From an uncultured Clostridia bacterium (GTDB taxonomy: Bacteria; Bacillota; Clostridia; Lachnospirales; CAMZNU01), in contig CAMZNU010000009.1 in NCBI GenBank assembly GCA_947313885.1, forward strand, positions 396-64,395: a DNA stretch of 64,000 nucleotides, given 5' to 3'. The translations under genes were made by a program, and so were the position numbers. This document shows positions 403-31,876 of this stretch, one piece after another. A model generated the notes under the pieces. The model worked only from the letters and a program-made list of their open reading frames with translations. It had not been told where the DNA came from and ran no database searches. The number at the start of each line of letters is the position of its first letter. Position 1 is the stretch's first letter.

Positions 403-436
403 ATTGAATTAATTAAAAAGTAATATAAAAAAGCAA

Positions 437-509
437 GGGTCACTAGCTCAGTTGGTAGAGCACTGGACTTTTAATCCAGTTGTCCCGGGTTCGAACCCCG
501 GGTGACTCA
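437..509 (+). tRNA. tRNA-Lys (anticodon TTT), copy 2 (identical to copy 1)
   Basis: 73 nt identical to 304-376. Confidence 0.92.
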
Positions 510-512
510 TTC

Positions 513-547
513 AAAAACATTAGAATCATAATTTCTAGTGTTTTTTT
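513..547 (+). terminator. rho-independent terminator closing the rrn/tRNA cluster
   Basis: Hairpin ACATTAGAA-(7 nt)-TTCTAGTGT (one G-U) followed by T7. Confidence 0.65.
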
Positions 548-687
548 GTTATATAGAAGAAAATATTGAATATATATATTAAGTACATATATAAATAATT
601 GACCAATAAAATAAGTACATTAAATGACAAACATATAGTAATAAAACATAGGACAAGTACATAGGTATATAACACAAGGAGGTAATT

Positions 688-3153: not shown

Positions 3154-3179
3154 CTATATGCTATATTGTTGTCTTTTTT
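3141..3179 (+). terminator. rho-independent terminator
   Basis: GACAACAAT-(15 nt)-ATTGTTGTC followed by T6. It overlaps the stop codon. Confidence 0.7.
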
Positions 3180-3245
3180 ATTAGTTGAATAGACAAGCAT
3201 GATTAATTACAATATTAGTATAAAAGATTAAGGATGGAGGAGAAT

Positions 3246-3584
3246 ATGAGCATAAAAGTAAAAACAGAACAAAGCTTTTTAGTAGTTAATCTAGAAGGTG
3301 AAATAGATCACCATAATGCTAGTAAAATAAGATTAGAATTAGATAAAAAAATAAGTGAAACAGATAAAAAAAAATTAATATTAAATTTTGAAGATGTTAG
3401 TTTTATGGATAGTTCAGGAATAGGACTGATTATAGGACGATATAAAATAATGAAAAATTTAAAAGGTGAAATATACGCAACTAACTTATCTAAGGAATTG
3501 TATAGAATATTTGATATATCAGGATTATTTAGATTAATAAAGCATTATGATACAGTGGAACAATGCAAAAAAACAGAAAGTTAA
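3246..3584 (+). CDS. spoIIAA: anti-sigma F factor antagonist SpoIIAA (STAS domain)
   Basis: STAS-fold sequence with the phosphorylatable-Ser motif FMDSSGIG. First gene of a spoIIAA-spoIIAB-sigF triad. Start moved from ORF-track 3234 to the ATG behind GGAGGAG. Confidence 0.9.
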   Translation: MSIKVKTEQSFLVVNLEGEIDHHNASKIRLELDKKISETDKKKLILNFEDVSFMDSSGIGLIIGRYKIMKNLKGEIYATNLSKELYRIFDISGLFRLIKHYDTVEQCKKTES

Positions 3585-3594
3585 GGGGGATAAA

Positions 3595-4026
3595 ATGTAT
3601 ACAAATGAAATAACATTAATATTAAGCTGTAAGTCAGAAAATGAGGGATTAGCAAGAATGTGCATATCGGGATTTTTGATGAAATTAGATCCAACGATAG
3701 AGGAGTTAAATGATATAAAAACGGCTTTATCCGAAGGTGTAACAAATGCAATTATACATGGTTACGAGCAAAAAGAGGGAGAAGTAATTTTAAAATGTAG
3801 AATAGAAGGGAGAAAAGTATACATAGAGATAAAGGATAAAGGTGTAGGGATAGAAAATATAGAGCAAGCCACAACACCGATGTATACGAGTAAGCCACAA
3901 TTAGAACGTTCGGGAATGGGATTTACAATAATGGAAACATTTATGGATGATCTAGAAATAATATCAAATAAAGAGAGTGGTACAATTATTAGAATGCATA
4001 AAACATTATGTAACACCTCTGAATAG
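3595..4026 (+). CDS. spoIIAB: anti-sigma F factor / serine kinase SpoIIAB
   Basis: GHKL-type kinase motifs (EGVTNAIIHG, IKDKGVGI, SGMGFTIM). Start placed at the ATG behind GGGGGA (ORF track begins at 3547, inside spoIIAA). Confidence 0.9.
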   Translation: MYTNEITLILSCKSENEGLARMCISGFLMKLDPTIEELNDIKTALSEGVTNAIIHGYEQKEGEVILKCRIEGRKVYIEIKDKGVGIENIEQATTPMYTSKPQLERSGMGFTIMETFMDDLEIISNKESGTIIRMHKTLCNTSE

Positions 4027-7024: not shown

Positions 7025-7092
7025 AAAACTAGGTGTGAAACCACCCGTTTTTACATATAACAATAGGTATACAAATATAAACGGAGGTAATT

Positions 7093-8409
7093 ATGGAAGT
7101 AGGTCAAGTTGGTTTAAAGATGGAAAAAAATGAAGCTATAATAGGGATAATATTAGGACTACTTGTTCTTGTTACAGGTGAAAAATTATTAGGAAGTTCA
7201 ATGTTGTTTTTTAGATTATTAATAGGTATGGGATTTGGATATGCATTAACAAGAGCATTTATGGGATTTGCAGGTTCTATAAATAGAGCATATGATGCAG
7301 GCTCTACAAAATTGATGCAAATATTAGCATATATGTTTTTAATAACATCAATATTAATGGTGTCATTTTTATATAATGCAGATATATCTACATACGGTTT
7401 ATGGGTTAATCCTATAAATACAGGATTAATTATAGGTGGTATATTATTTGGATTTGGTATGACATTTTCAGTTTGTTGTGCATCTGGTGTTTTAACAGAT
7501 TTAGTAACGGGTGTTTCAAGAGGACTAATAACTTTATTATTTTTTGGCATGGGTGTATTTTTAGGATTCCCATTCCAAAGAGGGGCACAGTGGACGAAAG
7601 ATGCAGGGATATCAAATGATTGGATAAAAAAATCATGGTTTTCAACGGAAAGTTTTGAAAATGGTGTATATTTTCCAGACTTATTTAAAAATGATGGGCT
7701 ACAAGGATATTTAGGTGCAGTATTATTAACTACATTATTATGTGGAGTTGTAATATACTTATCAAAAAAATATGAAAAAGGTAGAAGAAACAAAGGTACT
7801 TTTATAGGTGTTCCTTCAGAAATAGCACAATGTGTAGTACTATCAGATTGTGATAAAAATGTTGAAGAGTTTAAACTTTTTAGCGAAGAAACATATGTTA
7901 GACTTTTTGTTAAACCATGGTCAATGACTATAGGTGCAAGTGTAATATCAGTATTATTTATAATTTTAACAGGTGTAACTAAAAGTGGATGGGGAGCATC
8001 TACACCATATGGTTGGTGGTTTGGAAAATTATTAATGGTATTTGGAGTATCAGCAGAATCATTAGGATCATTTACTAATTTTCCAGCAGAATCTTACTCA
8101 AATCCATTTTTCTCTAATCCTGTAAATACTCAAAACTTTGGTATTTTATTAGGAACAATTATTTGTTTATTATTAGCAGGTACTTTTAAAAGTACAGTTA
8201 CAACAGAAATTAAAATAACACCAAAGCAAGGATTATTATATGCAATGGGTGGATTATTAATGGGATTCGGAACAAGATTATCTAATGGTTGTAATGTAGG
8301 AGCTTTATATACACCAATAGCTAACTTTTCTTTAGCAGGTTGGGTATTCTTTGTTGTATTAGTTGCAGGTGGAATACTTGGTAATATAGTGGCAAAAAAA
8401 ATTAGATAG
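7093..8409 (+). CDS. YeeE/YedE family sulfur-compound (thiosulfate-type) transporter
   Basis: Polytopic membrane protein with the two family Cys motifs (FSVCCASGVL and LSNGCNVGALY). SD GGAGG. Confidence 0.85.
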   Translation: MEVGQVGLKMEKNEAIIGIILGLLVLVTGEKLLGSSMLFFRLLIGMGFGYALTRAFMGFAGSINRAYDAGSTKLMQILAYMFLITSILMVSFLYNADISTYGLWVNPINTGLIIGGILFGFGMTFSVCCASGVLTDLVTGVSRGLITLLFFGMGVFLGFPFQRGAQWTKDAGISNDWIKKSWFSTESFENGVYFPDLFKNDGLQGYLGAVLLTTLLCGVVIYLSKKYEKGRRNKGTFIGVPSEIAQCVVLSDCDKNVEEFKLFSEETYVRLFVKPWSMTIGASVISVLFIILTGVTKSGWGASTPYGWWFGKLLMVFGVSAESLGSFTNFPAESYSNPFFSNPVNTQNFGILLGTIICLLLAGTFKSTVTTEIKITPKQGLLYAMGGLLMGFGTRLSNGCNVGALYTPIANFSLAGWVFFVVLVAGGILGNIVAKKIR

Positions 8410-8425
8410 TAAAAAAAGTACAAAT

Positions 8426-8479
8426 AAAAAACCATGAAATTAAACACTTGAGAATAGTGTATTAGTTTCATGGTTTTTA
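8426..8479. terminator. bidirectional terminator between convergent genes
   Basis: ACCATGAAA ... TTTCATGGT with an inner ACACT/AGTGT stem, flanked by an A-run and a T-run. Confidence 0.65.
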
Positions 8480-8503
8480 TTATGTTTTAAAAATAGCATA
8501 ACG

Positions 8504-9388
8504 TTACATATTTCCAGTTATATATATTGTTAGTATCATTAATCCGAACATGAACGTAATAGTGACAAAAAATAATTTTGTAAATATTGTAGATAATTTA
8601 AAATCATCAATGACAATTGGTTTATAATTATTTTCTAATTTAAGTTTATTTAAAAAATATAATATAGGTTTAATACATATAAGAGATATTAAAAATAATA
8701 TAGCTAGTTCATTGATTATTTCCGATAAATCTGGAACATCTAGTAAAGTGCTATATTCTTTATCGAAAAATATGGTCAATACACCAATTGAATTAAAAAC
8801 TAGGTGAAATAAAATAGATGAAAAAATAGATCCTGTGTAAATAACTAAATATGTAAGTATAATACCTATAAAAAAAGAATAAATAAATTGATGTAAGTTG
8901 CCGTGTAGTAGTGCAAAGAAGAAACCATTAATTATAGCTTTAGTTTTAACAGGTACTTTTTCAAAGTTAGATAAAAAGAAACAACGCATTAAAAACTCTT
9001 CGAAAACAGCTGGCAAAAGAGCTATTGCTATAAAAATAGTAAAAAATGAATCTATTTTAAAATCGTCTATAACGTCTGGTATAGGATTATGAAAAAATGC
9101 AGATGCCAAAGTACTTGAAAAATAAATAGAAGGCAAAAACAAAAATACTAAAATAAAAATAAAAAAATAAGATTTTAGTGATAGATTTTTTACAATTGGA
9201 AAAGAATTTAAATTAGTTTTGTTTTTTCTATAATAGAAATAAAATACAATAAAATAAGTTGTAATAGTTTCTGGAATAGAAAAATATGTACCGTTAATTT
9301 TTAAAATTACAAATATAACAGGTATTAGTATTGCATAAAAATAATATGAAAAAATAAGTTCATAACTTTTGTTAATAGTAGATCTCAT
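8504..9388 (-). CDS. CPBP family intramembrane glutamic endopeptidase (CAAX protease/Abi family)
   Basis: Multi-TM protein with motifs PAVFEEFLMRCF, FFALLHG and ILFHLVFN. Confidence 0.8.
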   Translation of the reverse strand: MRSTINKSYELIFSYYFYAILIPVIFVILKINGTYFSIPETITTYFIVFYFYYRKNKTNLNSFPIVKNLSLKSYFFIFILVFLFLPSIYFSSTLASAFFHNPIPDVIDDFKIDSFFTIFIAIALLPAVFEEFLMRCFFLSNFEKVPVKTKAIINGFFFALLHGNLHQFIYSFFIGIILTYLVIYTGSIFSSILFHLVFNSIGVLTIFFDKEYSTLLDVPDLSEIINELAILFLISLICIKPILYFLNKLKLENNYKPIVIDDFKLSTIFTKLFFVTITFMFGLMILTIYITGNM

Positions 9389-9529
9389 GATTTCCCCCTA
9401 AGTAATACAATATGTACAATTAATTATATACATGTATTGCATTACGTGCAATAGATACACTATAAACAATAAAAAAATTTTACAATATTATATATAATTT
9501 GTTATAATAGAAGTAATATGGAGGTAATT

Positions 9530-11257
9530 ATGAGAGTTATAAAAAATCATGAAAAGGAAAAATGTTTAAAGGAACTAAATTTACCAATGGCAACGATGAT
9601 AATAAATAAAGGTAAAATATATTATAATGACATGTTTAAGATGTGTTTTAATATTGTAAATAATGAATCTGTAGATGAAATAATAAAAAAATTAGATTTA
9701 AAGTCAAGCAGAAACATAATAGAAACTACTAATAATACGTATGATGTGTATATATCAAAAAAAACAAATGACGTAATAACAGCGGTATTTATAGATGCAA
9801 CAAGAAATATAGAGTTAAAAGATATTAATAAAAACATGATAGGCTATGTAATTATAGATAATTATGAAGAAACTATTGCTAAACTAGAAATGTCTAAAAA
9901 AGGAATAGTGGAAGCATTAGTAGATAGAAAAATAAATGAAATGGCAAATAAGCCATCGTATATAATTGAAAAAATAGAAGTTGATAGGTATTTAATTATT
10001 TTAAGGTATGAGGAATATTTAAAACTTAAAAGTGATAATTTTTCTATTTTAGAAAGTATAAAAAAAATAAAGATAAATGATGATATGCAAATAACTATAA
10101 GTATAGGGTTTGGTATGAGTAAAACAAATTTATATAGTAATAAAGAATATGCAAAAACAGCATTAGAACTTGCATTAGGTAGAGGTGGAGATCAAGTAGT
10201 ATTAAAAAATGGAGATAAATACGAAATTTTTGGCGGTGAAACAGAAGAAACAGTATCGAGAAGTGCAGTACGAGGAAGAGTAAAAGCCCAAATATTAAAA
10301 AAATTAATGGTAAGAGCAGATAAAATTATAGTTATGGGACATAAAAACCCAGATTTAGATTCATTAGGTGCATCAATAGGTGTAAACAAACTAGCTGTAG
10401 CATTAGGTAAGCAATGCAACATAATAATAGGAGAAGTAACAAGTAGTATAAAATTATTGCATGATAGGTTAGTAGAAGATGATAAATTTGATAATGATGT
10501 ATTTATAACGGGCGAAAAGGCATTAAAAGAAATAACAAAAAATACATTGCTAATAATAGTAGATGTAAATAAAGGTGTATTAGTTGAATACCCTAAATTA
10601 TTAGAGGCAAGTGAAAAAACGGTATTAATAGATCATCATAGAAAAGACATAGAAAGTATAAAGGATACTATATTGTCATATCACGTATCATCAGCATCAT
10701 CAACATCGGAACTAGTAATAGATTTAATAAAATATTACAAAGAAAATATAAAGCTTGAAAAAGTAGAAGCCGATGCATTGTTAGCAGGAATGGTAGTAGA
10801 TACGAAAAATTTTAGTTTTAAGACATCGTCAAAAACCTTTGAAAATGCTAGTTATGTAAATGTAGCTGGTGCAGAAACGTCAAGAGTACAAAATTTATTA
10901 CAAAGTGGTATTAAGGAATATAAAATTAAAACAGATATAGTTAATACGGCAGTGCTATATGGAGACATAGCAATAAGTACTTATGTTGGGGAGATGGAAA
11001 ATCCAAAGTTATTAATAGCACAAGCCGCAGATGAGTTATTAAATTTAGCAGAAATAAATGTATCATTTGTATTGACGAAAACCTCAAAAGGTGTATTAGT
11101 AAGCGCAAGAAGTTTAGGTAAAACAAATGTACAAAAAATATTAGAGAACTTAGGCGGTGGCGGTCATAGAACTATGGCGGCAGGAATCGTTTTAGATAAA
11201 ACGTTAGAGGAAGTTAAGCAAATGATATTATCTTATTTAAAAATAATGGAGGGATAG
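9530..11257 (+). CDS. gdpP: GdpP-like DHH/DHHA1 phosphodiesterase (c-di-AMP phosphodiesterase type) lacking N-terminal TM helices
   Basis: Degenerate GGDEF block ALGRGGDQVV, DHH motifs GHKNPDLDSLGA / IDHHR, DHHA1 GGGGH. Conserved yybT-rplI-dnaB synteny. Start placed at the ATG behind GGAGG (track 9518). Confidence 0.8.
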   Translation: MRVIKNHEKEKCLKELNLPMATMIINKGKIYYNDMFKMCFNIVNNESVDEIIKKLDLKSSRNIIETTNNTYDVYISKKTNDVITAVFIDATRNIELKDINKNMIGYVIIDNYEETIAKLEMSKKGIVEALVDRKINEMANKPSYIIEKIEVDRYLIILRYEEYLKLKSDNFSILESIKKIKINDDMQITISIGFGMSKTNLYSNKEYAKTALELALGRGGDQVVLKNGDKYEIFGGETEETVSRSAVRGRVKAQILKKLMVRADKIIVMGHKNPDLDSLGASIGVNKLAVALGKQCNIIIGEVTSSIKLLHDRLVEDDKFDNDVFITGEKALKEITKNTLLIIVDVNKGVLVEYPKLLEASEKTVLIDHHRKDIESIKDTILSYHVSSASSTSELVIDLIKYYKENIKLEKVEADALLAGMVVDTKNFSFKTSSKTFENASYVNVAGAETSRVQNLLQSGIKEYKIKTDIVNTAVLYGDIAISTYVGEMENPKLLIAQAADELLNLAEINVSFVLTKTSKGVLVSARSLGKTNVQKILENLGGGGHRTMAAGIVLDKTLEEVKQMILSYLKIMEG

Positions 11258-11260
11258 CAA

Positions 11261-11710
11261 ATGAAAGTTATATTAACAAAGGATATAAAAACATTAGGAA
11301 AAAAAGGCGATATAATAACAGCATCAGATGGATATGCAAGAAATTATTTACTACCAAAAGGCATTGCTATAGAAGCGACAGATGGAAATGTAAAAGTTCA
11401 AAGTAAAAAAACAGAAAAAATAGAAAGAGATAAAGAAGAAATATTAAATAATGCAAGAGAATTAAAAAATAAATTAGAAGAAAAAAAATTAAGCTTTAAG
11501 ATGAAAATAGGAAGTAATGGTAAAGCATTTAGTAGTTTAACAAATAAAGAAATATCAAAAGGTATAAAAGAACAATTAAAATTAGAAGTAGATAAGAAAA
11601 AAATAACTGTTAAAAACCCGATAAAAGCAATAGGAAATTTTTCAGTAGAATTAAAATTACACCCAAAAGTAATAGCAACATTAGAAATAAGAGTGGATGA
11701 AGCTAAATAA
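11261..11710 (+). CDS. rplI: 50S ribosomal protein L9
   Basis: [34 protein letters not shown] is the canonical L9 N-terminus. Confidence 0.95.
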
Positions 11711-13039
11711 ATGGAAGAAAAAGAGATTTTAAAAGTTCCTCCACGCGATATAAATGCAGAAGAAGCAATACTTGGGTGTATGCTATTTGATAAAGAGGGT
11801 CTAGCAAAAGGTATAGAGAACATAAATGCAGAAGAGTTTTACAAGCCAAATAGCAAAGTATTATTTGAAGCTATGAAAGCTTTGTATAATAGTAACAGCC
11901 CCGTAGATGCAATAACTATAGGTGATAAATTAAATCAAATGGGCGTAATAGAAAAAATAGGCGGTATAGAATATTTAGCAAAAATATCTAATACGGTATT
12001 TACATCATCAAAAATAGAATCTTATATAGAAATAGTAAAAAATGCATATATAAGAAGAAGATTAATAAAAATATCAAATGAAATAGAGCAAGCAAGTTTT
12101 AGAGGTGAGGCTAGTGTAAACCAGTTAATAGAATTAGCAGAGAAGTCTATATTTTCCGTAGTGGAAAATATAAGAAGTACAGAGTTTGCAGATATATCAG
12201 ATATTTTAGTAAGTGCAATATCTAAAATAGAACTTTTAGCAAATAGCAAAGGTGCAATAACAGGAGTTCCGACAGGGTTTATGGATTTAGATAAAGAAAC
12301 ATCAGGGTTTCAAAAAGCAGATTTAATATTATTAGCGGCAAGACCATCTATGGGTAAAACGGCATTAGCGTTAAATATAGCTCAAAATATGGCAATTAAG
12401 TATGATAAGAAAGTTGCGATATTTAGTTTAGAGATGTCAAAGGAACAATTAATAAATAGAATGATATGTAGTGAGGCGTTAATAGATTCGAATAAATTAA
12501 GAACAGGGGATTTAAACAGTGGGGACTGGAAAAAGTTAATAGAATCAGTTCCAATATTATCAAAAGCCAGTATATATATAGATGATACAGCGAGCATTTC
12601 AGTAACAGAACTTAGATCAAAATGTAGAAAATTGAAAATAGAAAAAGGTTTAGATATAATTTTTATAGATTACCTACAACTTATGGTATCAGGAAGTAGG
12701 AGCGAGAATAGACAACAAGAAGTATCAGAAATTTCAAGAACATTAAAGGCGATAGCTAGAGAATTAAATGTGCCAGTTGTAGCGCTTAGCCAACTTAGTC
12801 GTGGTGTTGAAAGTAGACAAGATAAAAGACCTATGTTATCAGATTTAAGAGAGTCTGGAGCGATAGAGCAAGATGCAGACATAGTATCATTTTTATATAG
12901 AGACGAATATTATAATAATGATACGGAGCATAAAAACATAGCAGAATTAATAATAGCCAAACAAAGAAATGGACCAACTGGGACAGTAAAATTAACATGG
13001 TTAAGTAAATATACAAAGTTTGGCGACACAGAAATTTAA
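11711..13039 (+). CDS. dnaB: replicative DNA helicase DnaB (DnaC in B. subtilis nomenclature)
   Basis: N-terminal PPRDINAEEAILGCML, Walker A ARPSMGKTA, Walker B IIFIDYLQL, QLSRGVESRQDKRPMLSDLRESGAIEQDAD. Confidence 0.95.
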   Translation: MEEKEILKVPPRDINAEEAILGCMLFDKEGLAKGIENINAEEFYKPNSKVLFEAMKALYNSNSPVDAITIGDKLNQMGVIEKIGGIEYLAKISNTVFTSSKIESYIEIVKNAYIRRRLIKISNEIEQASFRGEASVNQLIELAEKSIFSVVENIRSTEFADISDILVSAISKIELLANSKGAITGVPTGFMDLDKETSGFQKADLILLAARPSMGKTALALNIAQNMAIKYDKKVAIFSLEMSKEQLINRMICSEALIDSNKLRTGDLNSGDWKKLIESVPILSKASIYIDDTASISVTELRSKCRKLKIEKGLDIIFIDYLQLMVSGSRSENRQQEVSEISRTLKAIARELNVPVVALSQLSRGVESRQDKRPMLSDLRESGAIEQDADIVSFLYRDEYYNNDTEHKNIAELIIAKQRNGPTGTVKLTWLSKYTKFGDTEI

Positions 13040-13044
13040 ATATT

Positions 13045-13081
13045 AAAAAACGTATAATCTATAATAGATTATACGTTTTTT
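13045..13081. terminator. bidirectional terminator (dnaB / convergent minus-strand operon)
   Basis: CGTATAATCTA-taa-TAGATTATACG flanked by A6 and T6. Confidence 0.75.
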
Positions 13082-13310
13082 AATATTTAAATTCTAAAAC
13101 CCCACTATCAATGTATTTATTAATTTTAGCGAGGGGTATACCTGTATCAGAGACAAGATCACTTATTGTAATGCCGTAGTTATCTCGAACATAAGTACGA
13201 ATAAAATTTATTTCATCCAACTCTTTCTTTTTGCAAATATCGCAAATAGTATCATCCATAGTAGTAAAATTAAAAAAATTATTACATTTTTTGCAACGTA
13301 TTCTTTTCAT
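13080..13310 (-). CDS. small zinc-ribbon plus HTH protein, YvyF/TIGR03826-like
   Basis: CKKCNN...CDICKKKE Cys pairs, then EINFIRTYVRDN and an HTH-like ITISDLVSDTGIPLAKINKYI. Start set at the ATG 6 nt after GAGGTG (the track ORF extends to 13382 into the ABC-F gene). Confidence 0.5.
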   Translation of the reverse strand: MKRIRCKKCNNFFNFTTMDDTICDICKKKELDEINFIRTYVRDNYGITISDLVSDTGIPLAKINKYIDSGVLEFKY

Positions 13311-13329
13311 ATGCATCACCTCATTATAG

Positions 13330-15216
13330 TTATTCCGATAATTGTTCCCATTTATCAAAAAGAGTAGTAAGTTCTGTTTCAAAAATTTCTTTTTGGTTAA
13401 AAAGTTTTAATAATTTCTCTTGATCTCTAGAATTAGAGGGATCATTAAGTTGTTTATCAATATTTGAAATTTCGAGTTCAATGTTTGAAATTCGAATTTC
13501 AATTTTATCAATAGCATTTTTCTTTTTACGTTTTTCGCGTTCGATGTTTTTTTGTGCTTCACGACTAACTTTAGAAGTAGATGATATATTAGTTTCATTA
13601 AAAGAAACGTTAGAAGTATCTCTTTTTTCCATGTAGTAATCGTAGTCACCTAAGTAAGTTATGAATCCTTTATTTTTAAGTTCAATAACTTTATCGGCAG
13701 TTGAGTTTATAAAATACCTGTCATGGGAAATGTAAAGAACAGTTCCTTCATAATTTTTTATAGCATTTTCTAAAACTTCACGAGAATAAACATCAAGATG
13801 GTTAGTAGGTTCATCAAGGAGTAGGAAATTGGCTTTACTGTACATAATTTTAGCTAAGCTAAGACGTCCTTTTTCACCACCAGATAGAGAAGATATTTTT
13901 TTAGTAAGATCTTCATCATAAAACATAAATCTAGCTAAGTAGCTTCTAACTTCATAATTAGTGATAGAAGAATTCAAACTATCAAAAGTTTGAAATACGG
14001 TGAAGTCATCATTAAGTAAACTTTGACTTTGGTCATAGTAAGAGATATTTACGTTACTACCGAGTTTTATAGAACCTTCATTAGATTGTAACTCGTTTAA
14101 AATCAATTTAAATAAAGTAGTTTTACCAGCACCGTTTTGCCCAACTAAAGCGATTTTTTCGCCTCTAATAATGTCAAGGTCAACGTTTTCAAATAAAGTA
14201 TCTTCAAATTTCATAGAAAGACCACGAATTTTCAGAACTTCACGCCCGCTAAGGATGGGGGAGCTAAAAGTAAGTTTCATAGTAGAATTTAAATCTATAG
14301 GTTTGTCAATAATATCTAGTTTATCTAAAAGTTTTTGTTTACTGCGAGCGCGTTTTACAGATTTTTCGCGGTTAAAAGAAAGTAGTTTATCAATAGCTTT
14401 TTTACGTTTTTCCACATCTTTTTGTTGGCTTAAATATGCATGGAGTTCAATTTCTCTGTTAATTTCTTTTTGCATTAAATAGTCTGTAAAATTACCGTTG
14501 TAGCAATTAGCTATTCCGTGTTCAATTTCATAAACTTTAGACACTATAGCATCTAAAAAATATCTATCATGAGAAATTATAATTAAGGCCGTATTAGAAT
14601 TTTTCAAATAATTTTCTAGCCATTCAATAGATGGTAAATCCAGATGGTTAGTAGGTTCATCAAGAAGTAAAACATCAGGACTTTCTAATAAAGTTTTAGC
14701 AAGAGAAAGACGAGTTTGTTGACCACCTGATAAAGAAGATATATTTTTAGTGAAATCAGACTCTAAAAATCCAAGTCCTTTAAGAATACCAGTAATTTTA
14801 CTTTTATATTCATAACCGTTTAGAGCTTCAAAATCCGCTGTCAAATTAGAAAGATTTAAAATAGCTTTTTCTAATTCTAGATCACATAAGTTATCAAGAC
14901 TTTTTGTTATGTCATCAATATGCTTTTCTAAATCAACAAGATGATTAAAAGCAAGTTTAACGTAATCGTAAATAGTGTAATTAAAATCGGGGTTAAATAC
15001 TTGCGATAAATATCCTATAGTAGCGCCTTTTTTTAAAAACACATCGCCAGAATCTTTAGAAAGAGTATTTGTTAATATTTTAAATAGTGTAGTTTTTCCA
15101 GCACCATTTATGCCGACGAGGGCAATTTTTTCTTTATTTTTTAAGGGGATAGAAATATTGTTCAGAACATTTTTATCACCAAAGTTTTTATAAACGTTAT
15201 TAATAGATAAAATCAC
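13330..15216 (-). CDS. ABC-F family ATPase (two ABC cassettes, no TM domain; ribosome-associated type)
   Basis: Two Walker A motifs (GINGAGKTT, GQNGAGKTT), two signatures (LSGGQQTR, LSGGEKGR), two Walker B motifs (LLLDEPTNHLD twice) and a C-terminal coiled coil. Start set at the GTG 6 nt after AAGGAGG (track 15252). Confidence 0.9.
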   Translation of the reverse strand: MILSINNVYKNFGDKNVLNNISIPLKNKEKIALVGINGAGKTTLFKILTNTLSKDSGDVFLKKGATIGYLSQVFNPDFNYTIYDYVKLAFNHLVDLEKHIDDITKSLDNLCDLELEKAILNLSNLTADFEALNGYEYKSKITGILKGLGFLESDFTKNISSLSGGQQTRLSLAKTLLESPDVLLLDEPTNHLDLPSIEWLENYLKNSNTALIIISHDRYFLDAIVSKVYEIEHGIANCYNGNFTDYLMQKEINREIELHAYLSQQKDVEKRKKAIDKLLSFNREKSVKRARSKQKLLDKLDIIDKPIDLNSTMKLTFSSPILSGREVLKIRGLSMKFEDTLFENVDLDIIRGEKIALVGQNGAGKTTLFKLILNELQSNEGSIKLGSNVNISYYDQSQSLLNDDFTVFQTFDSLNSSITNYEVRSYLARFMFYDEDLTKKISSLSGGEKGRLSLAKIMYSKANFLLLDEPTNHLDVYSREVLENAIKNYEGTVLYISHDRYFINSTADKVIELKNKGFITYLGDYDYYMEKRDTSNVSFNETNISSTSKVSREAQKNIEREKRKKKNAIDKIEIRISNIELEISNIDKQLNDPSNSRDQEKLLKLFNQKEIFETELTTLFDKWEQLSE

Positions 15217-23632: not shown

Positions 23633-24910
23633 ATGGTTAAAGCAATAGTAGGAGCAAATTGGGGCGATGAAGGTAAAGGGAAAATAACAGATTTACTAGC
23701 AGAAAAAGCGGATTACGTAGTAAGATTTCAAGGTGGAAGTAATGCAGGACATACTATAATTAACGAATATGGAAAATTTGCACTTCATCAATTACCATCA
23801 GGAATATTTACAGACGGCGTAGTAAATGTAATAGGTAACGGAGTAGCAGTAAACGTTGAGTACTTAATAGAAGAAATGAAATCAGTAGAATCAGCTAAAA
23901 AAGAATTAAATTTATTAATTTCAAATAGAGCACAAATTTTATTGCCACACCATATATTATTAGACGTATATGAAGAAGAAAGATTAGGGGATAAAAAATT
24001 TGGATCAACTAAATCAGGAATAGCACCTTTTTATTCAGATAAGTATGCAAAAGTAGGATTACAAGTAGGAGAGCTTTTTGATAATGATGGATTAGAAGAA
24101 AAAATAAAAGGTATTTATGAAAAAGTAAACGTTATATTAAAACACTTATATAATAAGGAAGAAATAAATTATAAAGACGTTTTAAAAACATTAGAGGAAA
24201 ATAAAAAATTCTTAACAAAATACGTAGCAGATACGTCACTAATTTTAAGAAAAGCGATAAAAGAAAATAAAACTATTTTATTAGAAGGACAGTTAGGAGC
24301 ATTAAAAGATACAGATCACGGAATATATCCATATGTAACGTCATCATCAACGTTAGCAGGATATAGTACAGTAGGTGCAGGAATACCACCATATGCAATT
24401 CAAAATATAGTAGCTGTTACAAAAGCATACTCTACAGCAGTAGGAGAAGGACCATTTGTAGGAGAATTATTTGGAGAAGCTGGAGAATTATTAAGAGAAA
24501 AAGGTGGAGATAAAGGAGAGTATGGTGCTACAACAGGTAGAGCAAGACGAGTAGCATATTTTGATGTTGTAGCTACTAGATACGGCTTACAATGTCAAGG
24601 AGCTACAGAAGTAGCGCTTACAGCAATTGACGTATTAGCATATTTAGAAGAAATTCCAGTGTGTGTAGCATATGAAATTGATGGGGAAAGAGTTGAGGAT
24701 TTTGGAACTACACCAGAACTTTACAAAGCAAAACCTATATATGAAATGTTAAAAGGTTGGAAATGTGACATAAGAGGAATAACAAATTATGACGACTTAC
24801 CAAAAGAAGCTAAAGAATATGTTAAATATATTGAAGAAAAAATAGGTGTACCAATTAAAACAGTATCAACAGGACCAAAGAGACATGAAATAATAACAGA
24901 AGTGAAATAA
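23633..24910 (+). CDS. purA: adenylosuccinate synthetase
   Basis: GANWGDEGKGKITD P-loop, QGGSNAGHT, GTTGRARR. Confidence 0.95.
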   Translation: MVKAIVGANWGDEGKGKITDLLAEKADYVVRFQGGSNAGHTIINEYGKFALHQLPSGIFTDGVVNVIGNGVAVNVEYLIEEMKSVESAKKELNLLISNRAQILLPHHILLDVYEEERLGDKKFGSTKSGIAPFYSDKYAKVGLQVGELFDNDGLEEKIKGIYEKVNVILKHLYNKEEINYKDVLKTLEENKKFLTKYVADTSLILRKAIKENKTILLEGQLGALKDTDHGIYPYVTSSSTLAGYSTVGAGIPPYAIQNIVAVTKAYSTAVGEGPFVGELFGEAGELLREKGGDKGEYGATTGRARRVAYFDVVATRYGLQCQGATEVALTAIDVLAYLEEIPVCVAYEIDGERVEDFGTTPELYKAKPIYEMLKGWKCDIRGITNYDDLPKEAKEYVKYIEEKIGVPIKTVSTGPKRHEIITEVK

Positions 24911-24923
24911 AAATTAATATTTA

Positions 24924-24951
24924 AAAATGACCTGTAAAGGTCATTTTTTTT
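24924..24951 (+). terminator. rho-independent terminator of purBA
   Basis: ATGACCT-gta-AAGGTCAT followed by T8. Confidence 0.75.
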
Positions 24952-24990
24952 GTTTAAAGAATAAGTATTACTACATAATTATAAAATATA

Positions 24991-25019
24991 TTGACATATT
25001 CACCCATATATAGTGTAAT
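24991..25019 (+). promoter_or_regulatory. sigma-A-type promoter of the three-gene island (TTGACA-17 nt-TGTAAT)
   Basis: Perfect -35, 17-nt spacer, 5/6 match at -10, about 40 nt upstream of the ORF1 start. Confidence 0.55.
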
Positions 25020-25057
25020 TATACAATAAATACAAAATATATAGGAGGTTTAATTGT

Positions 25058-26359
25058 ATGGAAAGTAATTTTAAAGAGAAAATTGAAAATCATAAAGATT
25101 TAAAAGGTAAAATCAAAGATAGTACCTATGAAAAACTTGCTAATTTATATGAAGAAATAATTTCATTTACATCAGCAGAGGAAATGATGGAAAAGAGTAT
25201 TGAATATAGAAAAAAAATATTAATCATTAGAAGTCTCTTAGAGGAATATAAAGATGGTGATGATGAAAAAAGAAAAGAAATAATAGATTATTATATTAAT
25301 AATAATAAGTTGAAAGAGTTAAATAGTATTGGTCTTTGTTGGTATTACGATATGAAGTTTAAAAGAAGTAAGGCAACTTTATATAGTAGTAACTACGAGG
25401 GTGCTAGTAATTGGGAAGAGAAATTTAAAGAAAAAGAATTTGAAAAAAAAGAAAAATTAGTACAATTCATATTTAAAACATGTAATATGCATATAAATAA
25501 AGGGAATAAGCATGTAAAATTAAAATCATTATCAACATCATTTTTTACTGTCCTTTATAAATACATGGAAATTGATAAAGATAATAATGCAAATTTATAT
25601 ATTATAAAAAATGCAGAAATAAATTTTATTGAAACTCATAAAAGAGAATCATTGCAACAATACATAGTATCGGAAAATAGAGTAGAAAACACAAAATTTT
25701 GCATAGCATTTGGTGACGCTAGAGATAAGAACCTAGATAATTATAATAAATGGGGAAGGAATTATAATAAAGAACATATAGAAATAGTAGAAAGAAACAA
25801 TGGAGATGAAGAAAATAAAACAGGTCTTGGTAGTCGCATCTCACCAATTAAAGATGAAGAAGTTATAGTGAGTCATGAGTTTTGGGATATTGAAAAGTAT
25901 GAATCAAGCTCAGAAATAGAACCAGAATCAAAAAAATGCTATCATTTTACGTTTAATTTACCAGAATATGGTCATTTGCTTTATTGTTTCTTTAGACTTT
26001 ATAACGATGATAGTGAAATAAATAATAATGAAATAAAAATAGATGACGATGCTAAAAAAGAAATGAAAGATTACATTAAAAAAATTATAGAGTTAATAAA
26101 AAAACAGATAGAAGAACTAGAAGAGCTAGAAGAAGTAGAAAAGATAAAAGATAGAAAAGAGATATTTAAAAGTATACAAGAGGAACTAGAAAATAAAATA
26201 GATGATGTTTCATATGAAAAAATAGAAACAGTTTTATCGCTTATAGATTGGAAAATAGAAAAGAAAGAAAAGAAAAAGATGAAAATACGTAAAAGAGATA
26301 ACCAAAATACATTAAATCTAATAGCCAATTTATTTAAAGAAGGTCTAAAAAATGTATAA
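25058..26359 (+). CDS. hypothetical protein, island gene 1 (433 aa, no recognisable domain, E/K-rich coiled-coil C-terminus)
   Basis: Long ORF with SD AGGAGG 9 nt upstream. Same strand as, and overlapping or abutting, the next gene. No motif I can assign. Confidence 0.75.
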   Translation: MESNFKEKIENHKDLKGKIKDSTYEKLANLYEEIISFTSAEEMMEKSIEYRKKILIIRSLLEEYKDGDDEKRKEIIDYYINNNKLKELNSIGLCWYYDMKFKRSKATLYSSNYEGASNWEEKFKEKEFEKKEKLVQFIFKTCNMHINKGNKHVKLKSLSTSFFTVLYKYMEIDKDNNANLYIIKNAEINFIETHKRESLQQYIVSENRVENTKFCIAFGDARDKNLDNYNKWGRNYNKEHIEIVERNNGDEENKTGLGSRISPIKDEEVIVSHEFWDIEKYESSSEIEPESKKCYHFTFNLPEYGHLLYCFFRLYNDDSEINNNEIKIDDDAKKEMKDYIKKIIELIKKQIEELEELEEVEKIKDRKEIFKSIQEELENKIDDVSYEKIETVLSLIDWKIEKKEKKKMKIRKRDNQNTLNLIANLFKEGLKNV

Positions 26360-26375
26360 AGAAAAGGAGGTAATA

Positions 26376-27677
26376 ATGAATAATAGTGATAACAATAAAA
26401 TGTTTACCTTTGAATATATTGTAAACAATTATTTTAATAAATATGAAGTATACATACCAATAATTCAGAGAAATTATAAGTGGGACAAAGAAACAGCGGC
26501 AAAATTAGTAACAGATCTATGGGATGCATTTGATAATAAAAGGGGAAAATATACAGCAGGAATGATTACAACATACAAAGAAGAAGAAAAAGAAAATGGA
26601 AAAACAAAAATGCAACTAGTAGATGGTCAGCAACGAATAATAACATTATATATGTTACTTAAAATAATAGATCCATCTAAAGAGTACTTCACATTTAAAT
26701 TTGAAAGAGATGATGGACTAGAAGAAAAAAAGACTAGAGAATATTATTTAAAAAATATTAATAATCATAAAGAATATTCTATTGTAGATACAGATAGATT
26801 TAAAGAAAATTATTACGAGATGGACAGAAGGTTAAAGGAAGCAAAAAACTATTCTAAAGAGAGACATAATGAATTTTGTGAATACATAATGAAAAATTTA
26901 TATATGTTAATGCACATAAGTGAAATAGAGCCTTTTGATGAATTTATGAATATAAATAAAAACAAAACAAGATTTGTTATTTCGGATAGAATAAAAACTA
27001 ATTTACTTTTAGATTCAAAAAAAGAAAATAAAGAAGAAGTTTTAGAACTTTTTGAACAATTATCAAAATCGATGTTTACAGATAAGGTATGGGATTTAGT
27101 ATCACGAGGATATACGGGAGAAGAAATCATAGAAGGTAAACGTAAAAGAACGTATCATTATAAAGATGAAAACAGATTGAAACTATTATGCTGTGAACGT
27201 CATGGAGATAGTGAATATGATGTTACTAGTATATCAAAGTACGATTTTAAAGAAGAGCTACAGTATTTAAAACATTATAATGAACTTTTAAAAACAATAA
27301 AAGAAGATATGAATGCACAAAAATGGAAATCTTATAATGCATTTAATTGTATGTATGAAATAAATTATTCAGAAGAAAAAAGGTTCTTTTCAATAATAAA
27401 GGAAAAAAAGGAAAACTATAAAATAGAGAACTACTTTTTAGACGAGTACAAAAAATTAGGATATTTAGATAAAAATATTTTTATTGAAGCACAGTCATTA
27501 AGGGAAGAACGAGAAAATAAAGAGAAAGAAGAGAAAAAGAAAGAAGAGAAAGAGGAAGAAAATCTTTTAAAAAGCATTGAATCGAAAAACGATGAATGGA
27601 TAAACCATGATGAAGATGATATTAAAATATTTGAAGAAATATATAAACAATATATATACCTAAAATACAAAAAATAG
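26376..27677 (+). CDS. DUF262 (ParB/Srx-like, GmrSD N-terminal type) domain protein, island gene 2; no DUF1524/HNH detected
   Basis: Motifs IPIIQRNYKW, VDGQQRIITLYML, FMNINKNKTRFVISDRIKTNL. Start set at the ATG 5 nt after AAGGAGG. An alternative ATG at 26352 overlaps the ORF1 stop. Confidence 0.8.
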   Translation: MNNSDNNKMFTFEYIVNNYFNKYEVYIPIIQRNYKWDKETAAKLVTDLWDAFDNKRGKYTAGMITTYKEEEKENGKTKMQLVDGQQRIITLYMLLKIIDPSKEYFTFKFERDDGLEEKKTREYYLKNINNHKEYSIVDTDRFKENYYEMDRRLKEAKNYSKERHNEFCEYIMKNLYMLMHISEIEPFDEFMNINKNKTRFVISDRIKTNLLLDSKKENKEEVLELFEQLSKSMFTDKVWDLVSRGYTGEEIIEGKRKRTYHYKDENRLKLLCCERHGDSEYDVTSISKYDFKEELQYLKHYNELLKTIKEDMNAQKWKSYNAFNCMYEINYSEEKRFFSIIKEKKENYKIENYFLDEYKKLGYLDKNIFIEAQSLREERENKEKEEKKKEEKEEENLLKSIESKNDEWINHDEDDIKIFEEIYKQYIYLKYKK

Positions 27678-27685
27678 GAGGGAAT

Positions 27686-29842
27686 ATGAATAATACGGAA
27701 CAGAAAAAAATGAACTTAAAAGAAATATTAGAAATGTACAGTGGAATAATTATTCCAGATATTCAAAGAGATTATGTTATGGGGTCAGGTGGCAAGAAAC
27801 TTAAAAGTCTTTTAGATGCAATTAAAGAAAGTGAAAAAGAAAATAAAAAAGAAAATAAAAATTTTAACTTTAGTTGTATAATTGGTCATAGAGATGAAGA
27901 AAATAAATTTCATATTTATGATGGACAACAACGTCTAGCAACGCTAATTGCTCTGTGTTCATATGGAAATAATGATGAAGAGATAAAAAAGCTGTTGAAT
28001 AAATTTTCTTTTACTAAAAGAGAGAAAGCTAATGAAATGTTAGAAGACACGTCAAAAATTAACGAAGAAGAGATAGTAGATTTTTCTACATATTCATTAA
28101 ATGAGTTAATAAAAAATAAGGAGGAAATATCAGTAGAGTATATTTTAAATAACATATACTTTACTATAATTACAATTGATAAAATAAGTGATGCAGAGCA
28201 ATTTTTTCTAGATATAAATGATGGTTTAGATCTTAAATCACATGAAATGTATAAGGCAGAACTTTATAATCACATAAAAAAATTCGAAGGTTTTAAAGAA
28301 TTTGCTTTAAAGATGGAAAATGAGTGGCTTGAAATTTTCCGTAAACATAATAAAGCCAACGAACCAGAAAAGAGCTTAGTATACTTTTTACAATATTGCT
28401 TTAGAATGATGTGGATAGAAGATAAAGGATGCGATGATGAATTTAAACCATCAGATATAAAATTTATACAATATAGTCATATAGAACGTATAGAAAAAAT
28501 AATAGATGGGATAAAAGCTGTTATTGAAAATTCAGGGGAGTTTAGTTATAAAGAAAAAGGATTAATTTTTAACCCTAGGAGTTACAGATATAAAGGAACA
28601 CATTGGGACTTAACTCATAATAATTATGCTAATATGTTGAAAATATTTTTAGAAAATATAGAAAATATAGAAGAAATAAATAAAGATGTTGTAATGTGGT
28701 GTTACATATCAGCATCACCCGATAGTAGTGTTGACATATTAAATAAACATCTTAGGTTTATAAAAAAACTGTTAAATAATAATAGAGTTAAAAATAGTAA
28801 AGGCATTTTAGCCTATAACTTTGAGATACCAATATACTCAAGGTACTATGTAGATACTATACCAAAATATTATATTCTAAATTATAGTAGCGAAGAGATA
28901 GAAAATTACGATAAAAAGGAAGCAGATAATAAATCATTATTATTTTGTAATGACGTTATAAAGATTAATAAAGAGTTTATAAAAAATAATAATATAAATA
29001 TAGATCTTATAGATAAATATATATTACAAGTAGAAGAAGGAAGTGAAATAAAAGTAATATTAGAAAAAGAAAAAAATAAATTAAAGTCATCTAAAATAAA
29101 AGAGATAGAAGAATATGAAGACTTACCATTTATTAATGGATTAATAGACAATTTATATACCGATGATAAATATGAGGAAATAAAGGAAGATAGCATATAT
29201 AAAAAAATATTAGATAAAAGTAAAGAACTAGATCTAGATTTAGAAGGGGCAGAAGTTTTTAAACTTTTAATTAGAGAAAATATAGATGTAGAAAAAGTAA
29301 GTTTTAAAGGAGTTACGTTGAAATCTAAAAATTGTAACGGAACTGGACAAAACTTATGTGGCAAAGTTATACCAACTAATTGGTGCGATCTATTTACTAT
29401 GGATAAAGATGATAGAGCAAATATGTACGAAAGAGAAAAAGGGGAAGAATATTGGATTGCGAAGATTACAGAAAATGAATTAGATAATTTAGTTAAAGAA
29501 CTTAAATTAGGATGGATAGTAGATGGTGAAATTATTAGGTACACAGAAACGGACCCAAATAATGATAAGGTCCGTAATTCGGGTTTTTCTCCATATAAGC
29601 AAAAATATGTTGTTGTAGATATAATTAATTTTCATGAGAATTATAAAATGGTAACAAAGCACCCAAGCGCGGAGAATAGTCCTTGGCAAGATACTGAATA
29701 TGGATATAATAATAAAGTAAAAAGATTTGCCTCAATATATAAGAAATATGTTAATGAACAAGACAATAATGAACAATATAAGGAAGAAATTGAAAAGGCT
29801 AACGAGTACATAGAAGAAGCGAGAAAACATTATAATCAATAA
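27686..29842 (+). CDS. DUF262 domain protein with ~480-aa uncharacterised C-terminal region, island gene 3; no DUF1524/HNH detected
   Basis: Motifs IPDIQRDYVMG, YDGQQRLATLIAL, FFLDINDGLDLKSHEMYKAEL. SD AGGAGG. Starts 8 nt after the gene 2 stop. Confidence 0.8.
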   Translation: MNNTEQKKMNLKEILEMYSGIIIPDIQRDYVMGSGGKKLKSLLDAIKESEKENKKENKNFNFSCIIGHRDEENKFHIYDGQQRLATLIALCSYGNNDEEIKKLLNKFSFTKREKANEMLEDTSKINEEEIVDFSTYSLNELIKNKEEISVEYILNNIYFTIITIDKISDAEQFFLDINDGLDLKSHEMYKAELYNHIKKFEGFKEFALKMENEWLEIFRKHNKANEPEKSLVYFLQYCFRMMWIEDKGCDDEFKPSDIKFIQYSHIERIEKIIDGIKAVIENSGEFSYKEKGLIFNPRSYRYKGTHWDLTHNNYANMLKIFLENIENIEEINKDVVMWCYISASPDSSVDILNKHLRFIKKLLNNNRVKNSKGILAYNFEIPIYSRYYVDTIPKYYILNYSSEEIENYDKKEADNKSLLFCNDVIKINKEFIKNNNINIDLIDKYILQVEEGSEIKVILEKEKNKLKSSKIKEIEEYEDLPFINGLIDNLYTDDKYEEIKEDSIYKKILDKSKELDLDLEGAEVFKLLIRENIDVEKVSFKGVTLKSKNCNGTGQNLCGKVIPTNWCDLFTMDKDDRANMYEREKGEEYWIAKITENELDNLVKELKLGWIVDGEIIRYTETDPNNDKVRNSGFSPYKQKYVVVDIINFHENYKMVTKHPSAENSPWQDTEYGYNNKVKRFASIYKKYVNEQDNNEQYKEEIEKANEYIEEARKHYNQ

Positions 29843-29862
29843 ATTAAAATAAAATAAAAACC

Positions 29863-29905
29863 CCTTCAAGTGAAACTTAATTGTTTCCACTTGAAGGATT
29901 TTTTT
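29863..29905 (+). terminator. rho-independent terminator of the island operon
   Basis: CCTTCAAGTGAAAC-ttaatt-GTTTCCACTTGAAGG (one bulge) followed by ATTTTTTTATTTT. Confidence 0.8.
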
Positions 29906-30067
29906 ATTTTAAAATAGTTTTATTTCACCTAGATAAAATAAAACTATTAAATAATCTATAACAATTAAAAATGTAAAAATAAATATAGTTGACAAACTCC
30001 TATTATCTTGTACCTAAGAAATTAATGTGTTATAATTTTGTATTAATAGAGTACATTGGAGGTAACT

Positions 30068-31876
30068 ATGCTTAATGATAAACAAAAAAATATAAGAAAC
30101 TTTTGTATAATAGCACATATTGATCACGGTAAGTCAACGTTAGCAGATAGATTAATTCAAAAATCAGGATTATTAACAGAACGTGAGATGCAATCACAAG
30201 TGTTAGATAATATGGATTTAGAGCGTGAAAGAGGGATAACGATAAAAGCACAGGCTGTGCGACTTGTATATAACAGAGACGGCGAAGAATATATATTAAA
30301 TTTAATAGATACACCAGGACATGTAGATTTCACTTATGAAGTATCAAGAAGTTTAGCAGGGTGTGACGGTGCAATATTAGTAGTAGATGCAGCGCAAGGG
30401 GTAGAAGCACAAACATTAGCTAATGTATATTTAGCATTAGAAAATGATTTAGAAATAATACCAGTAATAAATAAAATAGATTTACCAAGTGCAGACGTAG
30501 AAAACGTAAAAAATCAAATAGAGGAAATAATAGGATTAGATACAGAGGGAATACCGCTTATTTCAGCTAAAAATGATTTGAATATTGATGATGTGTTTAC
30601 AGCGATAATAAAAGATATACCAGCACCAGTTGGAGAAATTGATAAACCATTAAAAGCGTTAATCTTCGATTGTTTTTTTGATGCATATAAAGGTGTAATA
30701 GTATTTATGCGTATTTTTGATGGGGAATTAAAAAAAGGCGACGTTGTAAAATTAATAGCTACGAATAAAGAATTTGAAGTAGTTGAAGTAGGATTTTTTG
30801 GTCCAGGAAAATTTATGCCAACAGATAAATTAGTTGCAGGAAACGTTGGATATTTTACAGCGAGTATAAAAAATGTAAAAGATACACAAATAGGAGATAC
30901 GGTTACATTAGTAAGTAACCCGACGACAGAACCGTTAGAAGGATATAAAACAGTAAACCCTATGGTATATTGTGGACTGTTCCCTGTAGATGGTGCTAAG
31001 TATCAAGATTTAAGAGATGCGTTAGAAAAATTACAATTAAATGATGCGGCGTTATCTTTTGAGGCAGAGGCATCAGCGGCGTTAGGATTTGGGTTTAGAT
31101 GTGGATTTTTAGGATTATTACATCTTGAAATAATACAAGAAAGATTAGAAAGAGAATTCAATTTAGATTTAGTAACTACAGCGCCATCAGTTATATATAA
31201 AATATATATGTCAGATGGTACAAAAATGGATTTATCAAATCCTAGTGATTTACCAGATGTAACGACTATAAGCTATATGGAAGAGCCGATGGTAAAAGCA
31301 GAAATATTATTACCAAGTGATTATATAGGAACGATAATGGATTTATGCCAGACGAGACGAGGGGAATATATTTCAATGGAGTACGTAGAGGAGACGAGAG
31401 CGAAACTTACGTATATATTGCCATTGAACGAAATTATTTATGATTTTTTTGATGTATTAAAATCAAGAAGTAAAGGATATGCATCATTTGATTATGAATT
31501 AACAGGATATACAGAATCAGATTTAGTTAAATTAGATATGCAAGTAAATAAAGAAGTTGTAGATGCGTTATCGTTTATAGTGCATAAATCAACGGCGTAT
31601 AACCGTGGTAAAAGAATGACAGAAAAATTAAAAGAAGAAATACCAAGACATATGTTTGAAATACCGATACAAGCTAGTATAGGAAATAAAATAGTAGCTA
31701 GAGAAACGGTAAGAGCTATGAGAAAAGATGTATTAGCAAAATGTTACGGTGGAGATATTTCGCGTAAGAAGAAACTTTTAGAAAAGCAGAAAAAAGGTAA
31801 AAAACGTATGCGTCAAATCGGAAATGTAGAAGTGCCACAAGAGGCATTTATGAGTGTACTAAAATTAGAAGATTAG
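30068..31876 (+). CDS. lepA: translation elongation factor 4 (LepA)
   Basis: [21 protein letters not shown]1 motif, [13 protein letters not shown] and LepA-specific C-terminal domain. The ORF-track start at 30056 is a TTG inside the SD GGAGG. ATG at 30068 chosen. Confidence 0.95.

Follow-up and report, generated by a model that had tools for sequence, protein, structure and literature searches.

The 64,000-nucleotide (nt) stretch analyzed here, hereafter the window, comes from an uncultured Clostridia bacterium (GenBank assembly GCA_947313885.1, contig CAMZNU010000009.1, positions 396 to 64,395 of the forward strand). Between purA and lepA it carries a cassette of three genes: open reading frame 1 (ORF1), whose product belongs to a rare protein family, followed by ORF2 and ORF3, which encode two DUF262 proteins. 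We find ORF1 to be the obligate third subunit, co-evolving with the other two, of a cassette of the GmrSD family in which no nuclease is recognizable. Its standing as an obligate third component follows from the fixed gene order in 19 cassettes, the co-divergence of the three genes and the absence of a DUF1524 domain from the partners. The features of the locus are:

24923–24948, + strand: purA intrinsic terminator, the upstream boundary of the inserted cassette (sequence reading and terminator scan)
24991–25019, + strand: putative cassette promoter, TTGACA (24991–24996), 17-nt spacer and TGTAAT (25014–25019), read directly from the sequence
25043–25048, + strand: ORF1 Shine–Dalgarno sequence AGGAGG, 9 nt upstream of the ATG at 25058
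25058–26359, + strand: ORF1, 433 amino acids (aa), founding member here of a rare uncharacterized family
26376–27677, + strand: ORF2, DUF262/GmrSD_N protein, 433 aa from the likely start at 26376 or 441 aa from the ATG at 26352
27686–29842, + strand: ORF3, 718 aa, with a DUF262/GmrSD_N N-terminus, a helical middle that is conserved and a C-terminal third (501–718) that evolves fast

The ORF listing of the window gives ORF1 as an ATG-initiated frame of 433 aa. A first-pass annotation of the window had placed this gene at the head of an operon, and the placement holds: the frame contains the peptide strings quoted there, is preceded by a Shine–Dalgarno sequence and lies downstream of the purA terminator. 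That terminator is the only terminator-like hairpin across 24800–30150 and ORF1 has promoter-like and Shine–Dalgarno signals of its own, which together identify ORF1 as the first gene of the unit. The TTGACA-17-TGTAAT element was missed by a consensus promoter scan because the scan rule demands an A at the second position of the −10 box.

A translational link between ORF1 and ORF2 through overlapping stop and start codons had also been suggested, and here the revised gene boundary points the other way. A strong AAGGAGG (26364–26370) precedes the ATG at 26376, and the resulting N-terminus (MNNSDNNKMF) fits the homologue consensus MxNNKMxSF. Since both signals point to 26376, this is most likely the start that is used, and the ATG at 26352, which overlaps the ORF1 stop, is probably not the start of ORF2. 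With the start at 26376 the gap between ORF1 and ORF2 is 16 nt, so that the genes are tightly packed and do not overlap. ORF2 and ORF3 are separated by 8 nt, and the ORF3 ribosome-binding site lies over the ORF2 stop codon. The GC content of the three cassette genes (0.24–0.26) is below that of the purB/purA and lepA flanks (0.30–0.32), as would fit an inserted cassette. lepA is the next gene after ORF3, and no terminator-like site was found between the two; the best sigma-70-like match of the region (TTGGCA-16-TATAAT, 11/12, at 29683–29710) falls within the 3′ end of ORF3, ahead of lepA. We also note that the GC skew is about zero or negative at 13000–15000 and 48000–49000, which are probably stretches of minus-strand genes, and strongly positive in the rest of the window.

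The ORF1 family and its DUF262 partners

ORF2 and ORF3 each have an N-terminal DUF262/GmrSD_N domain (PF03235; E 3e-19 and 5e-17, respectively) and no further Pfam domain; ORF1 has no DUF262 by Pfam. The DGQQR motif is invariant in the ORF2 family and in the ORF3 family, and ORF2 additionally shows QRNYKW and FxxxN; its C-terminal half is helical and contains the conserved motif ENRLK...RY. The two partners are paralogous DUF262 (ParB/Srx-like) NTPases whose nucleotide-binding motifs are intact. PADLOC returns generic GmrSD-like DUF262 matches for both proteins, the best for ORF2 being HEC-06, Orf5 and SspE. The predicted structure of ORF3 (predicted local distance difference test score, pLDDT, of 74) is matched best in Foldseek by SspE (6jiv, E 1.5e-6; 7drr, E 7e-5) and weakly by BrxU (E=0.28), which assigns ORF3 to the GmrSD structural family.

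The DUF1524 nuclease domain (PF07510) is not matched in ORF1, ORF2 or ORF3, and none is recorded for the 85 clusters of the ORF3 family, where PF03235 is the only Pfam domain (five clusters have none). Neither the ORF2-family nor the ORF3-family alignment contains an invariant His. Conservation across the system is lowest in the C-terminal third of ORF3 (mean identity 23%), a segment that the fused variant described below lacks. On the strength of these three observations we consider ORF2 and ORF3 to lack a recognizable effector, in agreement with what the first-pass annotation had read from the two sequences. A Pfam scan found no P-loop or ABC protein in the cassette.

The ORF1 family itself is rare. 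An exhaustive phmmer search of 1.84 billion cluster representatives returned 29 proteins at E≤1e-3, and a word-indexed search of 5.8 billion proteins gave 3–4 matches; the window protein is present in the protein collection, where its cluster is represented by a 54-aa fragment. Homologous loci were assembled both from ORF1 (L001–L007 and L015–L018) and from ORF3 (L008–L014 and L020–L023 gathered, with L008, L009, L011, L013 and L020–L023 counted as cassettes). When contigs of sufficient length are screened with hidden Markov models (HMMs), the order ORF1-like, ORF2-like, ORF3-like is found without exception in 19 distinct cassettes, including that of the window. The association holds from both directions. 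Every ORF3-anchored locus examined has an ORF1 homologue two genes upstream: the Pfam-blank genes in this position were identified as such by hhalign in L009 (99.5%), L011 (100%) and L008 (99.5–100%), and by hmmsearch in L020–L023 (E 1e-41 to 1e-105). Likewise, no ORF1 homologue with enough flanking DNA stands apart from DUF262 genes, an ORF2-like and then an ORF3-like gene following each time. Across 12 complete cassettes, ORF1 diverges in step with its partners: its pairwise identities correlate with those of ORF2 (r=0.95) and of ORF3 (r=0.82), indicating that the three genes are inherited as a unit.

Support for a physical partnership of ORF2 and ORF3 comes from L013/L014, in which the two are fused. 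The L013 product (8001–11339) is a single protein of 1112 aa with two DGQQR motifs, matching the full ORF2 profile at 16–493 and the first 454 positions of the ORF3 profile at 527–1035; the fusion is good evidence that the two proteins work as a pair. The ORF1 homologue of the same locus (5471–8011) has 846 aa, with the ORF1-like domain at 448–669 (hhalign 96%). It carries an N-terminal extension of ~440 aa that has no Pfam match and is not ORF3-like; the idea that this extension is a relocated ORF3 C-terminus was rejected (hhalign probability 0.7%). A Pfam scan of the longer or weaker family members (P0029–P0031, L013 and L020) uncovered no informative fusions.

The cassette is flanked differently in each genome, often by mobile or defence-related genes. 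In L015 the cassette is located at a prophage end beside two serine integrases, L009 has Mrr_cat and Y1 transposase neighbours, L007 has a Schlafen/AlbA_2 neighbour, and insertion sequence elements or recombinases are found near the cassettes of L005, L011, L021 and L022. Decayed copies also occur. In Paenibacillus hexagrammi (L008, CP090978.1, 5135–8013) the cassette lies beside Tn7-like tnsABC genes and the homologues of ORF1 and of ORF2 are each broken into two frames, and in Clostridium butyricum ORF2 is split in L012 (6715–7999) and intact in L011. Collections of 72,556 plasmids and 50,697 phage genomes yielded no ORF1 homologues; IMG/VR holds one copy, at a prophage border. Hosts of the ORF3 family, which with its 85 clusters is the larger one, include Clostridium botulinum, C. 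butyricum, Paenibacillus and Lysinibacillus. A complete cassette is also present on a short contig (L006, JAEYSH010000199.1, 5.7 kb) binned with a metagenome-assembled genome of a Methanobacteriota archaeon, which we attribute to binning contamination or inter-domain transfer because all other hosts belong to the Bacillota.

Two loci have further neighbours of note. In L020 (6142–8887) the start of a Metallophos phosphoesterase gene overlaps the end of the ORF3-like gene, and a gene for an ADP-ribosylglycohydrolase joined to NADAR follows 19 nt further on. Upstream of the L013 cassette (114–3987) lie genes for an RNA ligase and for two Metallophos proteins, together with an HD-domain match too weak (E 0.0014) to pass the Pfam cut-off. 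Such neighbours might point to nucleic acid that is ADP-ribosylated or damaged, or might be there by coincidence.

Fold and conservation of ORF1

Searches of ORF1 against Pfam, NCBIfam, PADLOC and PHROGs yielded no match reaching E=0.01, the best in Pfam being TPR_10 (E=0.055), and scanning 25 or 32 family members singly against HMM libraries still returned nothing meaningful. The AlphaFold model is nevertheless confident (pLDDT 84, predicted template-modelling score 0.85). It consists of an N-terminal helical bundle (1–82, with helices at 2–82), a mixed α/β core (88–316 in the model, within the conserved region 84–320) and a C-terminal helical hairpin (330–431, with helices at 330–383 and 386–431). 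Both results bear out the initial description of ORF1, which had proposed a helical N-terminus, a distinct middle region and a helical C-terminus and had found no convincing known signature. Foldseek searches of the PDB and BFVD with the model gave no match. For the PD-(D/E)xK, HNH/His-Me, GIY-YIG, PLD, HEPN, TIR and Sir2 folds specifically, there was no HMM match and no Foldseek match in the same two structure sets.

Conservation was examined in an alignment of 32 sequences spanning the family. Six positions are invariant (G92, S157, L166, N189, D266 and L307), and Y78, Y79, E87, H145, S159, K168, Y169, D217, R222, W232, P263, E268, S272 and several C-terminal residues are at least 90% conserved. 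The core segment 84–237 has a mean identity of 42%, compared with 29–33% in the terminal helical parts; this value is above that of the ORF3 C-terminal third and similar to those of the non-DUF262 parts of the partners. Judged from the alignment, the dense set of conserved polar residues in the core could fit an active site or a nucleic-acid-binding surface. The window protein is the shortest member of the family (433 aa against ~470–500 aa) and lacks both an N-terminal insert of ~22 aa and a helical insert of ~40 aa at the loop 240–259.

Several candidate motifs were considered and set aside. Two strings had been described as faintly nuclease-like at best, and this assessment stands: KEHIEIV sits in the non-conserved loop 240–259, where the pLDDT is below 50, and GDARDK overlaps R222, a conserved position, but the family's D217 is Ala in the window copy. 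A reading of 'EHIN' as DUF1524-like fails because H145 is at a helix end in the model rather than in a ββα unit, the preceding Glu is Met in the window, and the His is missing in 2 of the 32 sequences. Assignments of D217...D266-x-E268 to PD-(D/E)xK, where D217 is again the Ala of the window copy, and of WYY(95–97)/LYS(108–110) to GIY-YIG have neither HMM nor structural support and amount to unconfirmed speculation. A zinc site formed by C142, H145, C294 and H296 was discarded since only close relatives conserve C294 and H296, and descent of ORF1 from a diverged ORF3 paralogue was likewise dismissed (hhalign probability 0.2%).

The only sequence match of ORF1 in the PDB is to the nucleoid protein YejK (HMMER, a 36-residue stretch of 9be2, E=0.096–0.49), in which a YejK segment of 24 letters aligns to ORF1 129–160. 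This lead is tempting because YejK-like nucleoid proteins have been reported as infection sensors in PANGU systems (10.64898/2026.04.06.716658). Aligned by hhalign to Escherichia coli YejK alone, ORF1 reaches a probability of 58%. Against a profile of the NA37 family built from eight members (E. coli yejK and seven diverse plasmid NA37 genes), the profile–profile probability is only 2.4%, which marks the match as a chance local one. In addition, 9be2 was not returned by Foldseek and the YejK motif is not conserved in the NA37 family, and we therefore reject ORF1 as a YejK/NdpA protein.

Possible roles of ORF1

The trio of ORF1 and two DUF262 proteins is probably an undescribed three-part anti-phage system; literature searches found no published description of it. 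Our best-supported guess for ORF1, and still a tentative one, is that it binds the DUF262 pair and supplies the output function. The proposed mechanism begins with a horizontally moving, probably anti-phage unit of order X, DUF262, DUF262, in which ORF1 is the obligate first gene. ORF2 and ORF3 would act as a heterodimeric sensor of foreign, probably modified, DNA driven by nucleoside triphosphates (NTPs), as has been proposed for TgvAB and GrwAB. ORF1 would bind this heterodimer and provide the output that DUF1524 gives elsewhere, most likely from its α/β core (84–320), where E87, H145, S157, S159, K168, N189, R222, D266 and E268 would make up either an active site or one that contacts DNA, in a fold not yet in the PDB. 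The output chemistry could be DNA cleavage or another toxic activity. A narrower proposal makes ORF1 a nuclease, or a toxic effector of another kind, with a fold that solved structures have yet to show, switched on in trans by the heterodimeric DUF262 NTPases; it is possible, if less likely than not.

If this narrower proposal is correct, GmrSD-type restriction would gain a new class with three components, probably sensing modification, in which something else stands in for the canonical His-Me nuclease. The cassette would also show how a ParB-like NTPase switch can be coupled to another output. Among the known sensors of hypermodified or phosphorothioated phage DNA, DUF262/GmrSD enzymes are the principal ones. 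With ORF1, the defence repertoire of the Bacillota (Clostridium, Paenibacillus, Lysinibacillus and gut anaerobes) would be extended by a new protein family and perhaps by a new effector fold. At ~4.8 kb and three genes the cassette is small and directly testable.

Several observations weigh against an effector role. No nuclease, NTPase, TIR, PLD or other catalytic signature is present in ORF1 in the four HMM libraries searched, and a confident model that finds no Foldseek match in the PDB or BFVD offers no positive evidence of enzymatic function. Some of the residues assigned to the putative site vary: H145 is Gly in L009 and Gln in P0024, and E268 is replaced by His in L009, the C. botulinum homologue. 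The window protein itself deviates at four positions that are at least 90% conserved (D217A, F236Y, Y311F and Y411R). ORF1 is also the fastest-evolving of the three genes (mean identity 0.36 versus 0.47 and 0.39), a pattern that suits a sensor or adaptor no less than an enzyme. Finally, the case for defence activity is built from family membership and genomic context. The first-pass annotation had named ORF1 as the missing effector or adaptor of the DUF262 pair: synteny upholds the claim that it belongs with the pair, whereas for a role as effector, as opposed to adaptor, sensor or regulator, neither a catalytic motif nor a structural match was found.

The strongest rival explanation takes ORF1 to be non-catalytic, serving as adaptor, scaffold or specificity (sensor) subunit, and places the output in the DUF262 proteins, either in the conserved middle or C-terminal parts of ORF3 as an unrecognized nuclease or in the ParB/Srx-like domains. 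The rapid evolution of ORF1, its lack of a catalytic motif and the loss of conserved positions in some members, the window copy among them, are all in keeping with such a role, and its long helical N- and C-terminal parts would suit protein–protein contacts. On the ORF3 side, many acidic and basic residues outside DUF262 are invariant (the invariant charged or polar set being E228, E245, D334, K360, N364, E478, N484 and D568). Its C-terminal third contains a ββα unit with the consensus 'PHTWCDFFT' (window 29300–29400, residues ~540–571), which includes the invariant D568 and has its His in 19 of 32 members; this unit may be a degenerate His-Me finger relic. DNase activity in members of the ParB/Srx group is also on record, in work cited by PMC10853773. 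The candidate ORF3 His is, however, missing in 13 of the 32 members and is Thr in the window copy, and the region that holds it is the poorly conserved third that the fused L013 variant does without. A dense invariant polar set such as that of the ORF1 core would also be unusual for a pure scaffold. We regard this explanation as rather unlikely, and the assignment of the output to ORF1 remains our preferred one.

It is also conceivable that no nuclease is needed. ORF1 would then sense an infection cue and unleash the two DUF262 NTPases, leading to NTP/dNTP depletion or DNA clamping and hence to aborted infection. Both DGQQR motifs are invariant and no recognizable nuclease is present anywhere in the cassette, nucleotide degradation by ParB-superfamily proteins has been proposed (PMC10853773), and Dazbog, a system with DUF262 and without DUF1524, works by abortive infection (10.1101/2022.08.27.505566). 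In SspE, BrxU, GmrSD, TgvAB and GrwAB, however, the NTPase regulates a nuclease and is not the effector itself (PMC10952713, PMC11411939, PMC12137116), and we consider an NTPase-only design improbable. Least credible of all is a function outside defence, such as housekeeping or mobile-element maintenance through partition-like DNA handling or addiction: the window copy does lie between the housekeeping genes purA and lepA with no other defence gene adjacent, ParB-superfamily proteins act in partition too, and the plasmid and phage collections gave no match, but the cassette is patchy and rare, its flanks are different in each genome and often include recombinases, transposons, a prophage end or restriction genes, decayed copies of it exist (L008 and L012), and its DUF262 domains score best against GmrSD-like defence models (HEC-06 and SspE).

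Comparison with known DUF262 systems

All characterized GmrSD-type proteins rely for their output on DUF1524, a His-Me nuclease domain marked by a (D/E)H-x-x-P motif (PMC10952713). Cleavage by GmrSD, BrxU and SspE requires DNA modification such as glc-hmC, 5mC or phosphorothioate. The single-chain enzymes GmrSD, BrxU, SspE and HEC-06 resemble ORF2 and ORF3 in joining a DUF262 NTPase to a helical DNA-binding middle domain, but they are homodimers with a C-terminal DUF1524 domain carrying that motif, and the domain is absent from all three cassette proteins.

Systems that have DUF262 without DUF1524 include Dazbog (DzbAB), Menshen (NsnABC) and PD-T4-2, in which, as in the cassette, DUF262 is coupled in trans to other partners (PMC10952713, PMC12065111). 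In Dazbog the partner is a second protein of unknown function, and the system is toxic when triggered by DNA methylation (10.1101/2022.08.27.505566). All three systems differ from the cassette in having one DUF262 protein rather than two, and Menshen requires an ABC ATPase (PMC12065111), which the cassette does not have. The PADLOC models for DzbA/B, NsnA/B/C and PD-T4-2A/B had no match in ORF1–ORF3 or in the 32 ORF1-family and 32 ORF3-family members. The three-gene McrBC variants LlaI and BsuMI offer a functional analogy only, with an NTP-driven DNA sensor split over two proteins and a separate nuclease (10.64898/2026.08.31.748284). The families are unrelated, an AAA+ GTPase and a PD-(D/E)xK McrC standing in place of the ParB-like DUF262 proteins and the unclassified fold of the cassette.

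The closest parallels are the two-protein systems of Vibrio cholerae. TgvAB, a GmrSD-family type IV restriction system of VPI-2, has, like the cassette, two adjacent genes with N-terminal DUF262 domains and QR, DGQQR and FxxxN motifs (PMC11411939). TgvA is a DUF262-only protein, like ORF2, and the requirement for both NTPase sites implies a hetero-complex (PMC11411939). TgvB carries an essential DUF1524 His-Me nuclease (H571, N602) that ORF2 and ORF3 do not have (PMC11411939), and TgvAB has no third gene, whereas the cassette always has an upstream gene of the ORF1 family. GrwAB, from the WASA lineage, is likewise a DUF262 pair predicted to form a complex, and in GrwB the DUF262 domain is followed by several domains of unknown function, an architecture resembling that of ORF3 (PMC12137116). 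Here it is GrwA that supplies the canonical DUF1524 nuclease, and there is no ORF1-like component (PMC12137116). In both systems the DUF262 NTPase sites of the two proteins and the DUF1524 nuclease are needed for defence (PMC11411939, PMC12137116). The lack of DUF1524 and the obligatory third gene thus set the cassette apart from the TgvAB/GrwAB class. The trait of two adjacent DUF262 proteins with intact NTPase motifs, on the other hand, is shared by ORF2 and ORF3, and by analogy the cassette would work most like TgvAB and GrwAB, with two DUF262 NTPases acting together.

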